Positions 13,072 to 16,000 are shown, counted from the first letter of the stretch. The stretch is DNA of 64,000 nucleotides from Escherichia coli (GCF_048403405.1 NZ_CP183129.1); one strand, 5' to 3'. Made by a program: numbers and translations. The notes: generated by a model from the sequence alone, not told the origin.

Positions 13072-16000
13072 TACTTGCCTCCCAAAGCATTCTGTAAATC
13101 CTGAAGAACGTTTTCTGCTGCTGCTCGATCCCCTGGAGATGCTGTTGGATTCTTATCCAACCAATCCTGTAAAGCCCTTGTATAATCCTGTGCTTTCAAT
13201 ACATGTCCTCTACCACCAACTTTTTCACCTGTGGCCAATTCATAACGAACAGCATCTGCTGTGCTTCCACTTCCTACTTTTGCATTTGGCCGATAAAGAT
13301 CGTCTATAATATTTTTCAAATTTGAATCTGTAACGTCAGGTTTTCCCATCTTCTGTCGCAATTCATCTTTATACCGTTCATGCTGCATACGATCTCTTGC
13401 GCTATTCTCATCTTCTGGTCCCCATCCTCCCGGGCTTCCCGTACTGCCACCACCCAGGCAGTTCTTCTCTTCCTCCGTCAAATCCTTCCCGACATTTGGA
13501 TTCTCTTTTGATGAATCATCATTTCCAAACACGCTGGAAAAAGCACCATAGGGATCTCGCCAGAATTCCATTTGACTTTGTGCATTTAATAATTCGGCTT
13601 CACCCTGCATCTCCATACTTTTCTCAATCGCGTCCCCAACAGCCTCGCGATTGTTGTATATTATTATACCACCACCAATAACCACCGTACCGACTGCCGC
13701 ACCGACTAACATCCCCGGAGGGCCTCCTACCGAACCGATCTCTGTACCTACTTCAGAACCAGTTCCCATGGCAGTTAATGCTCCTGCGCCCAACGCCGCA
13801 CTTAATCCCAGCGGATCCAGCCGTTGCACCGGGTTCAGTGGATACGCATACAGGTTCCATCCCCCCTTCAGCCCAATCGGATCCTGGGTGATATACCTCC
13901 CCTGTAGCGGGTCATAGTACCGGTGACGGTTGTAGTACAGCCCCGACTCCTCATCATACTGCTGCCCCGGCAGACGGAGTGACTGTTGAAGGTGCTGCGC
14001 GCTGGTTTCGCCCAGCAGGTTTCCCCACTCGTCATACTCCCCGCGCCACGCCGTTTCCCCTTCCGGGCTGATAAGCGCCTGCGGCAGCCCACGGTGGTCA
14101 CAGTGGTAAAGATGAAGTTTCCTCTCCGGGATGTATTCCGCCTCCAGTTGCGCCGCCATCTGTTCCGCCGTCAACCCACACTGTGCAAGCCACTGCTGGC
14201 TTTCTTCACTCACGCTGCCCTGCCGCAGTTCCCGCTCCAGCCTCCCCAGCATCACCGCCAGCTCCGCCGGTAGCGTCACACCCGTGTCCTCCTGCAACAC
14301 CTCCGCCAGGCTACGGTGCCGCGCCTTCGCCTGTTCGCCATTCTCTGTTTCGATTCTCAGGAGCGGCGTGAAGCTCCCCGGCTGGTATACCGTCTGGATA
14401 CGCGTGGTGTCGGTCTGTACCGTCGTCAGCCTGTCGCCGTCCCACCCGTACCAGGTCACCTCCGGTTTACGCGACAGCGACATCCACCCCGTCAGGTCAC
14501 GCTCCCGCCGCCACACCCGTTTTCCCGTCCGGCGGCCCAGCGGGTCATAGAGGTAGCGGCTCTCCACCTGTGGCTCGCCGTGCTGTATCCGCGTGTAGAA
14601 CACCAGGCGGTGCTGGCTGTCGTAATGGTAGTGGTGCGTCCGCTCGTCGTGCATCCGTATCACCCCTTCCGGGATACGGTCCGTCTTCTCCGCCAGCCTG
14701 CCGTATTCATCGTAGCGGTAGACATAGTGCGCATCTTCCGTGATGCGGTTATCCGGCCACGCCGTGAAGGTGCTGTCCGGGTGCAGTTCCGGGTCCGGCA
14801 GCCGGTTTCCTGCCGGGTCCGTCGCATACGGGATATCAATGTCCAGGTTCGCTGCCGTGGTGTGGACGCCCGTCAGCCTTCCCGTGTCGCTGTAACGGTA
14901 CTCCCGGCTCTCCTGCGGGCCGCTGATGCGAATTAGCTGTCCGTTGTCGTTCCAGTCGTAGTCACGGTCAAGCTGCGGAAGGTTCAGGTGCCTGCTCCGG
15001 AGCTGGCCGCTGGTATTCCAGGCGGTGGCAAGCTCATATGCCTCCCCGCCGAAGCTGCGGGCCGTCTCACGGTGCAGCCGGTCCCGCGTGTACTCGACCA
15101 GTGGCGTACCACCCAGCTTCATTCCCGCAAGATAACCGCTGCCATACGTCAGCCACTCCACCGGCGGCAGACCGTCCGGCTCCTGACGGGTCGCCAGCCC
15201 CTGTTCGCTGTACGCGTGCTTCATCTCATGCTCCCACAGCATCTCCCCCGTCTCCGGGTTCTCCACCGTCTGCCGTTCGCCGGTCAGGCGGCCTTTATCG
15301 TCGTGGCCGTAGTGGACCGCCACACGGTGGCCTTCGCTGATATGGCTGATTTCTGTCAGCCAGCCGTGCTCATCATACTGCCACTGCTCCGCCGGGTCGC
15401 CGTTCACCGTCCGGTGCGTGATGCGGTCCGACGCATCGTAATGCCAGAGGGTGATAAGTCCCTCGTCTTCACTGTGGACAAGCTGCCCTGTGGCGCTGTA
15501 CCGGTAACGCTGCGTCCTGCCGTCAAAGCCGCGCTGCTCCGTCAGCCTGTCCACCGGGTCATACCGGAACGTGGACTGGCTGCCGTTCTCGTTGGTCAGC
15601 ACGGTGATGCGCCCGGCAGCGTCATACCCCATGCTGCGCGTCAGACCGCCTTCCGTCACACTCACCGGACGCCCGCGTTTATCATATTCGATGGTGCTGC
15701 GTTTACCGTCCGGTGATATCGTTGCTGTCAGGTCGCCTGCGGCGCTGTACTCATAACGGGTTTCACGCCCCTGCGCATCCTTCTGACTGACCAGTTGGCC
15801 TCGCGGGTTATAACTGCTGTAAGTGCTGATGCCTTCCTCCCGGTGAACGGCGATTTGTTGACCGTACCGGTCATACTCATACCGCGTCATGTACCCCGAG
15901 CAGTCCGTGAAGGCCCGAAGCTGACCGTACCGGTTTCGCGTTATTCTCCGCGTCACCCCGATTCCGTCTTCCACCGCGCCGGGCAGGCTACTGCGGGGGG

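Follow-up and report, generated by a model that had tools for sequence, protein, structure and literature searches.

The window analyzed here, a stretch of 64,000 nucleotides of an Escherichia coli chromosome (GCF_048403405.1, NZ_CP183129.1), carries in its type VI secretion system 1 (T6SS-1) locus a gene for a PAAR-Rhs effector, directly downstream of vgrG. The C-terminal tip of this effector starts, immediately after the DPLGL motif that ends the Rhs core, with a Gly-rich hydrophobic segment of 49 residues. This segment opens a 133-residue pre-toxin module that is found joined to three unrelated toxins and that occupies the place of the cytoplasm-entry domain in CdiA proteins with the same linker and toxin. 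From sequence comparisons and from the analogy with known systems, we tentatively propose that the module acts in inner-membrane insertion or translocation of the toxin, a reading to which we give a probability of about 0.45.

A glycine-rich segment directly after the Rhs core

On the minus strand, positions 13656-13817 translate in frame 1 to DPLGL (aa 1253-1257; 13803-13817) followed by the 49-residue segment (aa 1258-1306; 13656-13802), exactly as the preliminary description of this DNA had quoted them. The NCBIfam model RHS_core gives 2493 bits over aa 1-1257 of the protein. Both this model and Rhs_assc_core stop at L1257, and the Gly-rich segment begins at the next residue. In addition, similarity at the DNA level to about 21,000 further Rhs copies from E. 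coli genomes ends at 13803-13837. From the ends of the family models and from this DNA-homology boundary, the segment is assigned to the variable tip rather than to the plug. The alternative that it is a buried part of the plug or core, which had been raised together with the first description, is rejected on the same grounds. AlphaFold2 (AF2) does not place the segment in the plug. The region shows the marks of a released Rhs tip: it varies between paralogs, it coincides with a break in composition and it is directly followed by an immunity gene.

The sequence around DPLGL also resembles a known autoprotease site. In RhsA of P. protegens, the cut follows the final residue of PxxxxDPxG(W/L/F), and D1324 and D1346 are required for it. 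In the E. coli protein, DPLGL is preceded by a first motif, DPIGL (aa 1231-1235; 13869-13883, minus strand), whose D1231 is predicted to be the first of the two catalytic aspartates in the C-terminal autoprotease. D1231 and D1253 are spaced by 22 residues, as are D1324 and D1346 in RhsA. On the published cleavage rule, the predicted cut falls between L1257 and S1258, and the Gly-rich segment would form the new N-terminus of the released tip. The earlier statement that the segment sits between the Rhs shell and the toxin, to be released with the tip, holds as regards its position in the variable tip. Direct contact with the toxin, on the other hand, is not found, as a helix and a 40-residue linker intervene.

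Base composition changes at the same place. The GC content of third codon positions (GC3) is 0.70-0.80 in the Rhs core, 0.39 in the Gly-rich segment, 0.43 in the helical part that follows it, 0.45 in the linker, 0.26 in the toxin and 0.29 in the immunity gene. A first step, from 0.72 to 0.39, is sharp at DPLGL (~13803), and a second one is seen at the boundary between linker and toxin, near 13400. Total GC declines gradually from ~13850, from 0.60-0.65 in the core to 0.33 near 12500, because the GGN codons of glycine mask the first step. Hence, the AT-rich switch reported from ~13650 down to the immunity gene is real, and neither total GC nor GC3 is flat across the junction, but the switch was placed too far downstream: the drop had been seen only from ~13650, whereas the first GC3 step is at ~13803.

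The segment contains 14 Gly, 7 Ala, 6 Val, 5 Ile, 4 Thr, 3 Ser and 3 Leu, Gly thus making up 29% of its residues as compared to 10.8% in the whole protein. A repeated (G/A/S)xxxGxxxG pattern is present, which is said to be the transmembrane glycine-zipper pattern described by Kim et al. in 2005. In tip numbering (residue 1 being aa 1258), it forms two runs, G15-G19-G23-G27 and G30-G34-G38, with Pro-Pro between them. The first run (aa 1272-1284; 13722-13760, minus strand) is amphipathic by hydropathy and helical moment and carries E17 and E21. More generally, the first 27 residues of the tip are weakly hydrophobic, contain these two Glu and show some helical amphipathicity. The second run lies inside the hydrophobic span that follows Pro-Pro (aa 1287-1306; 13656-13715, minus strand). 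This span contains the most hydrophobic 19-mer of the 1500-residue protein (aa 1287-1305), with a Kyte-Doolittle (KD) mean of 2.16 and, by a simple sum on the Hessa scale, +0.8 kcal/mol, a borderline value for a membrane span. All zipper glycines and the Pro-Pro are kept in the single divergent copy (62% identity). A plain flexible linker was considered for this segment and rejected, since no other stretch of the protein is as hydrophobic and since a true Gly/Ser/Pro linker comes 44 residues further downstream.

A two-part tip with exchangeable modules and toxins

The tip is 243 aa long and has two parts, the 133-residue pre-toxin module and a 110-residue toxin. In tip numbering, the module is made of the Gly-rich segment (residues 1-49), a helical part (50-93) and a linker (94-133), and the toxin covers residues 134-243. 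The helical part (aa 1307-1350; 13524-13655) contains a helix drawn by AF2 at tip residues 52-81, with a predicted local distance difference test score (pLDDT) of ~67. The linker (aa 1351-1390; 13404-13523) is Gly/Ser/Pro-rich and begins NPNVGKDLT; it is also found in CdiA C-terminal regions (CdiA-CT). The toxin domain (aa 1391-1500; 13074-13403), defined by homolog search and AF2, is predicted as all-alpha with pLDDT values of 87-98. All three are encoded on the minus strand. The AF2 models were made from the whole tip with a 48-row alignment and from the module alone with 3 rows. In alignment A2, the row of P0021 was misaligned by MAFFT, which introduces minor noise.

A homolog search with the 243-residue tip as query retrieved 114 proteins. 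Nearly all of them have in common with the tip the last ~110 residues alone, that is the toxin, and a subset also has residues 94-133. The toxin domain is carried by Rhs, CdiA/VENN, PAAR, PT-TG, CpnT-like, Hint and other scaffolds, including Gram-positive ones. The conserved motif of the family reads YRPxAxxGSGSTAxAxRxE...GGxxHxxKA...DRAAAEN. The toxin has no Pfam, NCBIfam, PHROG or PDB relative, and its AFDB50 matches are uncharacterised C-terminal domains only. Judged from its homologs, it is a widespread, unnamed polymorphic-toxin domain. Scans of the tip, the toxin and the immunity protein against Pfam, NCBIfam and PHROGs gave no significant match, apart from weak matches of the module to tape-measure PHROGs.

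The linker matches PDB entries 5j43, 5j5v and 8zyc (CdiA-CT of UPEC536) exactly at the junction of their N-terminal and tRNase domains. An assignment of 5j43 and 5j5v to EC3006/NC101 PtsG-type toxins was considered and rejected, both being CdiA-CT of UPEC536. In CdiA proteins that carry the same toxin as the E. coli tip, the pre-linker domain is ~80% identical to the N-terminal domain of CdiA-CT UPEC536/ECL; for one of them, P0008, the matches to 5j43, 8zyc and 4ntq have E values of 1e-55 to 1e-40. The cytoplasm-entry domain of CdiA-CT carries the toxin from the periplasm across the inner membrane to the cytosol. For the UPEC536/ECL type, entry reportedly depends on MetI, an observation attributed to Willett et al. 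in 2015. Since CdiA proteins with the same linker and the same toxin have their entry domain at this position, the Gly-rich module occupies the entry-domain slot.

The module, hereafter M1, is found in combination with three unrelated toxins. Besides the toxin of the T6SS-1 Rhs protein (13074-13403), M1 is joined to a toxin with a DUF3969-type immunity gene, once in P0021 (locus L003) and again in an orphan copy found in 605 E. coli genomes, and to the toxin of P0252, in whose orphan cassette a single reading frame runs from the core end through the complete module into the toxin. Conversely, at least four Rhs-type modules (M1, P0002, P0003 and P0005) are found in front of the toxin of 13074-13403, and the DUF3969-linked toxin is also found with a P0003-type module. 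A fifth module type (P0107) has the linker in common with M1 and occurs with two further toxins. The linker is joined to other toxins in P0006, P0103, P0107, P0111 and P0112 and occurs in 948 of the 5,426 E. coli genomes. As far as these sequence combinations tell, the linker is the joint where toxins exchange.

The modules that precede this linker differ between the two scaffolds. In the Rhs-type modules, KD maxima are 2.16, 2.02, 1.82, 1.60, 1.48 and 1.26, with 0-2 Cys (none in M1), as compared to 1.05-1.28 and always two Cys in the CdiA-type modules. P0065 was excluded from this comparison because the pattern had misclassified it. Between M1 and the copy of locus L003, the ratios of nonsynonymous to synonymous substitution rates (dN/dS) are 0.24 in the Gly-rich segment, 0.10 in the helical part and 0.12 in the linker, with saturated dS in this one sequence pair. 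For this pair, the low values indicate that the module is maintained by purifying selection.

In E. coli BEC1-S17-ESBL-07 (L002, 5820-7439), as in the 605 genomes, the orphan M1 copy with its DUF3969-linked toxin has 95.9% nucleotide identity to M1. There, an ISAs1 element truncates the module inside the Gly-rich segment, at VGGPPG, and gene callers begin the open reading frame (ORF) at MLVGAAVG. In GCA_900477985.1 (LS483456.1; L085, 6700-14200), a vgrG-rhs pair is followed downstream by an array of immunity genes and orphan Rhs tips. This array includes a toxin of the same family behind a different pre-toxin module (FVPLVITGYYISAEVV...), and CdiA_C and Ntox28 cassettes as well.

We compared the tip with 70 diverse Rhs tips, together with 33 full-length Rhs proteins. 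None of the 70 (median 133, maximum 221 aa) reaches its length of 243 aa, and most of them consist of the toxin domain alone. A hydrophobic start as a general property of Rhs tips was rejected: it occurs in 4 of the 70, and a separate set of fragments agreed. Among the 33 full-length proteins, a hydrophobic segment is present in the tip of 1, in the N-terminal region of 15 and at both places in 0, numbers too small to judge whether such a tip segment replaces the N-terminal transmembrane domains. As most Rhs tips do without it, the Gly-rich segment is at most one solution and not a general requirement for delivery. Hydrophobic or Gly-rich tip starts of unrelated sequence were observed in P0249 (L082, 2357-2686), P0031, L016, L030, L035 and L053. 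P0249 shows another Gly-zipper after DPFGL (DPFGL-NPAATAAAGASIGSVVPGVGTVVGAIVGFVIGVGLTY) in a truncated, uninformative ORF. In P0031, two Gly-rich hydrophobic stretches precede a toxin of the same family as that of the E. coli Rhs protein. Their unrelated sequences suggest that a hydrophobic or Gly-rich start of the Rhs tip arose more than once.

A remote tape-measure relative and parallels with toxin entry domains

Word-indexed and exhaustive profile searches with the module covered 1.84 billion representative proteins. The relatives are almost only enterobacterial Rhs-tip fragments, and the sole significant outsider is P0258 (E 5e-6). The profile score of P0258 is 42.6 bits, against a maximum of 13.3 bits in shuffled sequences (2,000 global and 2,000 local-composition shuffles). 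Residues 15-78 of the module match residues 150-213 of P0258 with 33% identity over 64 residues, and the match is collinear through the zipper and the helix. Within it, the 26-residue helix motif is 58% identical to GDVIERSLEKVGEAQLMAAEGQLEFW of P0258, in which the motif is found four times. The P0258 sequence (L080, 8001-9413) shows a glycine zipper and then four tandem units of ~40 residues with GEAxLxAAExQLEFWNS, and the Rhs module resembles one such zipper followed by one unit.

The gene of P0258 follows the genes for sheath and tube and is flanked on one side by a tail assembly chaperone and on the other by LysM, YQBQ and baseplate genes. By its neighbors, this is the tape-measure position of a PBSX-like contractile tail. 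P0258 matches tape-measure PHROGs (4e-6), a Pasteurella phage tape-measure gene (3e-4) and the Pfam families Gly-zipper_YMGG (1.9e-4) and Gly-zipper_Omp (1.6e-3); P0252, a relative of the Rhs module, gives a Pfam glycine-zipper match of 0.024. The module itself matches the tape-measure PHROG phrog_934 weakly (E 0.005), and a tblastn search of 50,697 phage genomes with the module found no match. P0258 stands as the only significant relative outside Rhs, collinear over zipper and helix motif, and tape-measure proteins are ejected through the tail tube. On the other hand, it is a 470-aa structural protein of a Firmicute-type tail with four helix motifs, whereas the Rhs module has one copy and is followed by a toxin. 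Through this one remote relative, the module appears to be related by ancestry to the glycine-zipper segment of phage tape-measure proteins.

The architecture has a close parallel in the CdiA-CT entry domains. The order of elements is the same (cleavage motif, N-terminal module, linker, toxin), the linker is that of UPEC536, and modules and toxins are likewise shuffled in combination. However, the entry domains of the UPEC536/ECL type and of the EC3006 PtsG type are helical bundles with a conserved disulfide and without a membrane-like helix. In contrast, residues 1-93 of the Rhs tip contain no Cys and include a hydrophobic span of 20 residues. They have no sequence similarity to CdiA entry domains and no PDB or Pfam match.

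Tde1, a T6SS DNase of Agrobacterium tumefaciens, offers a parallel of another kind. An unbroken series of GxxxG motifs runs through its residues 12-51, a region with similarity to tape-measure proteins (Ali et al. 2023, PMC10240207). On its own, the N-terminus of Tde1 inhibits growth by making the inner membrane of E. coli permeable; the substitutions G39L/G43L abolish permeabilisation and translocation into prey, secretion being unaffected (PMC10240207). The same study cites suggestions that, while the phage genome is being injected, tape-measure proteins make channels and contact inner-membrane proteins of the host (PMC10240207). By this published description, Tde1 and the Rhs module both have a GxxxG run of 40-50 residues that overlaps a hydrophobic segment, lies N-terminal to the toxin and is similar to tape-measure proteins. 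The two differ in their setting. Tde1 is a small cargo effector whose N-terminus is bound by the adaptor Tap1 (DUF4123) for loading, whereas the Rhs segment lies inside the cocoon and would become N-terminal through autocleavage; there is no gene for an adaptor close by, and a CdiA-type linker attaches the segment to its toxin. Since the Rhs locus has no DUF4123 gene, the loading route differs from that of Tde1. By analogy, the module would do for Rhs what the entry domain does for CdiA-CT and the N-terminal glycine zipper for Tde1, and it is a good candidate for bringing the toxin through the inner membrane of the prey. In the literature searched, we found no description of such a segment in an Rhs tip.

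Genetic setting and candidate role of the module

The Rhs gene spans 13071-17573 on the minus strand, encodes 1500 aa and is annotated in identical genomes. The region 12600-14100 is 100% identical to several complete genomes, and at least 80% of it is present in 267 of 5,426 E. coli genomes. In the annotation of an identical genome, the T6SS-1 cluster is complete (tssB/C/E/F/G/J/K/M/A, tssH and hcp); after it come hcp and vgrG, then an "RHS element core protein", a hypothetical small gene and, lastly, an ISEc1 transposase. By translation and by annotation of identical genomes, the vgrG spike gene (17649-19790, minus strand) is immediately upstream of rhs. No Eag (DUF1795) or DUF4123 adaptor gene lies between the two, nor is one annotated at the locus in identical genomes. 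The small ORF at 12694-13071 (minus strand) overlaps the Rhs stop codon by 1 base and is the putative immunity gene. Its 125-aa product is predicted to be soluble (KD maximum 1.34), with a net charge of -8 and no signal peptide, and has no family match in Pfam, NCBIfam and PHROGs scans. Directly downstream comes the transposase gene of ISEc1, an insertion sequence (IS) of the ISAs1 family (11337-12458, minus strand). The AT-rich DNA (GC 0.32-0.37) runs on through the intergenic stretch 12350-12700, which suggests either a joint arrival of tip, immunity gene and IS or the end of the island at this place.

The N-terminal region of the Rhs protein has no membrane segment (KD maximum 1.28). The features of prePAAR proteins are absent: there are no N-terminal transmembrane helices, no AARxxDxxxH motif (the corresponding Rhs stretch has no His) and no adjacent DUF1795 gene. 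At aa 51-58 (~17420-17445, minus strand), the protein reads PVNPLLGA where N-terminally self-cleaving T6SS Rhs proteins have PVxxxxGE. From this difference, N-terminal self-cleavage may be absent in this Rhs protein.

In the prePAAR/Eag effectors (Tse6, RhsA of P. protegens, Rhs1 of Salmonella), hydrophobic segments have also been proposed as the means by which the toxin passes the inner membrane of the prey. However, these segments are N-terminal, outside the cocoon and Eag-dependent, whereas in the E. coli protein the hydrophobic segment is in the cleaved C-terminal tip, no Eag gene is present and the N-terminus has no such segment. A soluble immunity protein without signal peptide points to a toxin that acts in the cytoplasm. 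With an Rhs protein devoid of an N-terminal membrane segment, a locus devoid of a chaperone gene and a cytoplasmic immunity protein, a translocation device would be needed.

A possible sequence of events is as follows. In the producer cell, the Rhs aspartyl autoprotease would cut after L1257, to judge from the conserved residues and from published Rhs structures, and the tip, beginning SAALGAGAL..., would stay unfolded in the cocoon. We propose that the cocoon shields the hydrophobic stretch, so that no Eag-type chaperone is needed. The VgrG-PAAR-Rhs spike, as the genetic context suggests, would be fired into a neighboring cell, and the tip would leave the cocoon in the prey periplasm. The Gly-rich segment could then form a hairpin, with the amphipathic G15-G27 arm, a turn at Pro-Pro and the hydrophobic G30-Y49 arm. 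This hairpin would insert in the inner membrane, singly or as an oligomer, and either permeabilise it or make a conduit. The flexible linker and the all-alpha toxin would follow to the cytoplasm, where the toxin would act, and sibling cells would be protected by their soluble cytoplasmic immunity protein.

Several observations weigh against this role. As regards the segment itself, the number of GxxxG pairs (6, against a mean of 3.5 when the same residues are shuffled; P=0.076) is suggestive but falls short of significance, so that periodicity alone counts for little. The Pfam glycine-zipper models (Gly-zipper_Omp/YMGG/OmpA) do not match the tip, even at E<=10. There is a single hydrophobic span of ~20 residues, with a borderline Hessa value, and the first 27 residues of the tip, with their two Glu, are too polar to span a membrane. 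The pLDDT of residues 1-49 is 44-57 in the model of the full tip and ~30 for the module alone, and AF2 draws a weak beta-hairpin in the Gly-rich part, not helices. As a model, it neither supports membrane helices nor puts the segment in the plug. In addition, the conservation of the module rests on three informative sequences of a small family; none of the 4 hydrophobic starts among the 70 surveyed tips is Gly-zipper-like; and 17 of the 33 full-length Rhs proteins have no hydrophobic segment at all, whether N-terminal or in the tip. Finally, the cytoplasmic site of the toxin is deduced from the soluble immunity protein and from the CdiA homologs with entry domains, and the T6SS may deliver some cargo straight to the cytoplasm.

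The two corresponding proposals of the preliminary description are thus only partly sustained. The predicted membrane character and amphipathicity of the segment agree with its KD maximum and with some helical amphipathicity, but the Hessa value is borderline and no membrane helices are predicted. Membrane insertion or translocation, the role suggested for it, agrees with the entry-domain position, the exchange of toxins, the purifying selection and the tape-measure relative, but the lack of membrane helices in the AF2 models and the figure of 4 in 70 tips speak against it.

Other explanations were weighed. The module could itself be a membrane-depolarising or pore-forming toxin, like Tse5-CT, the ionophores of contact-dependent inhibition (CDI) systems and EsxX, in which case the tip would carry two toxicities. 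Contact-dependent systems commonly have glycine-zipper toxins, membrane permeabilisation by the Tde1 N-terminus is enough to inhibit growth, and the Rhs cocoon of Tse5 from Pseudomonas aeruginosa shows that a pore-forming tip can be held there. Like the segment described here, the membrane-active hydrophobic sequence of Tse5-CT is enclosed in the cocoon and released by cleavage after the core. However, the Tse5 tip is itself the pore-forming toxin that inserts into the membrane, and most of the length of pore-forming tips is membrane-like, as against ~20 residues here. The E. coli tip is hydrophobic in its first 49 of 243 residues only, and a soluble enzyme-like domain follows. A pore-forming tip is expected to pair with a membrane-embedded immunity protein. 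Here, the only adjacent immunity protein is soluble and acidic, without a membrane segment, and would leave siblings unprotected from a pore-former; by its hydrophobic length and its immunity protein, the tip is not of the Tse5-CT type. One module with three toxin/immunity pairs also suits a carrier better, and we consider a second toxic activity improbable. The same low standing goes to a packaging element, by which the Gly-rich stretch and the helix would aid the loading of a foreign toxin, its maintenance in the unfolded state or its exit through the plug, with no role at the prey membrane. Rhs tips are indeed unfolded inside the cocoon and must thread out, M1 is found on Rhs tips only, CdiA proteins with the same toxin using other modules, and AF2 shows no autonomous fold of the module. 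Yet 66 of the 70 Rhs tips, many of them on similar cores, start with a polar toxin, so that such an element is not needed for encapsulation, and the tape-measure homology has no obvious tie to packing in the cocoon.

The history of the cassettes raises a different doubt, namely that the region before the linker is a functionless relic of an older tip, kept as cassettes recombine at the linker. The two GC3 steps indicate that module and toxin differ in their history, recombination at the linker can be demonstrated, and in 605 E. coli genomes the module survives solely as the IS-truncated orphan. On the other hand, dN/dS values of 0.10-0.24 at saturated dS between copies with different toxins, the conservation of all zipper glycines and of the Pro-Pro, and orphan cassettes that hold the whole module in frame with the core end make a mere leftover quite unlikely. 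Still less probable is an entry domain that depends on a receptor, the module binding a specific inner-membrane protein and using the proton gradient, with the Gly-rich stretch as a docking surface. The architecture, the linker and the combinatorial shuffling are as in CdiA-CT, and several Rhs modules per toxin would be expected for different receptors. But the sequence has no similarity to any CdiA entry domain, the Cys pair is absent, and the Rhs module has a candidate membrane-like helix where CdiA entry domains have none.

A more specific form of the translocation reading is that the module is a fragment of a phage tape measure, taken over by Rhs tips, whose zipper and helix, once the cocoon is in the prey periplasm, build an inner-membrane conduit that threads the unfolded toxin, much as has been supposed for tape-measure proteins and the passage of phage DNA. 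The T6SS is a relative of phage tails without a tape measure. We regard this idea as rather unlikely. If it were true, the module would, together with Tde1, point to a general tape-measure-derived route of T6SS toxins into the cytoplasm, and the Rhs modules M2-M5 would form an Rhs-specific entry set parallel to the CdiA-CT entry domains.

The finding bears on the route by which Rhs toxins with a cytoplasmic site of action get through the inner membrane of the prey. The favored idea relies on N-terminal transmembrane helices shielded by Eag chaperones, but it cannot cover the many Rhs proteins that have no such helices. The E. coli tip offers a concrete and genetically tractable candidate: the module is short, conserved and exchangeable, and it lies in the place of a CdiA entry domain. 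If it works as a portable device for entry, this would account for the two-part Rhs tips in enterobacteria, CDI and T6SS toxins would share linker-delimited cassettes, and the module could serve as a tool to deliver other cargo. If it is not, the combinatorial module-by-toxin architecture of Rhs tips is still documented.

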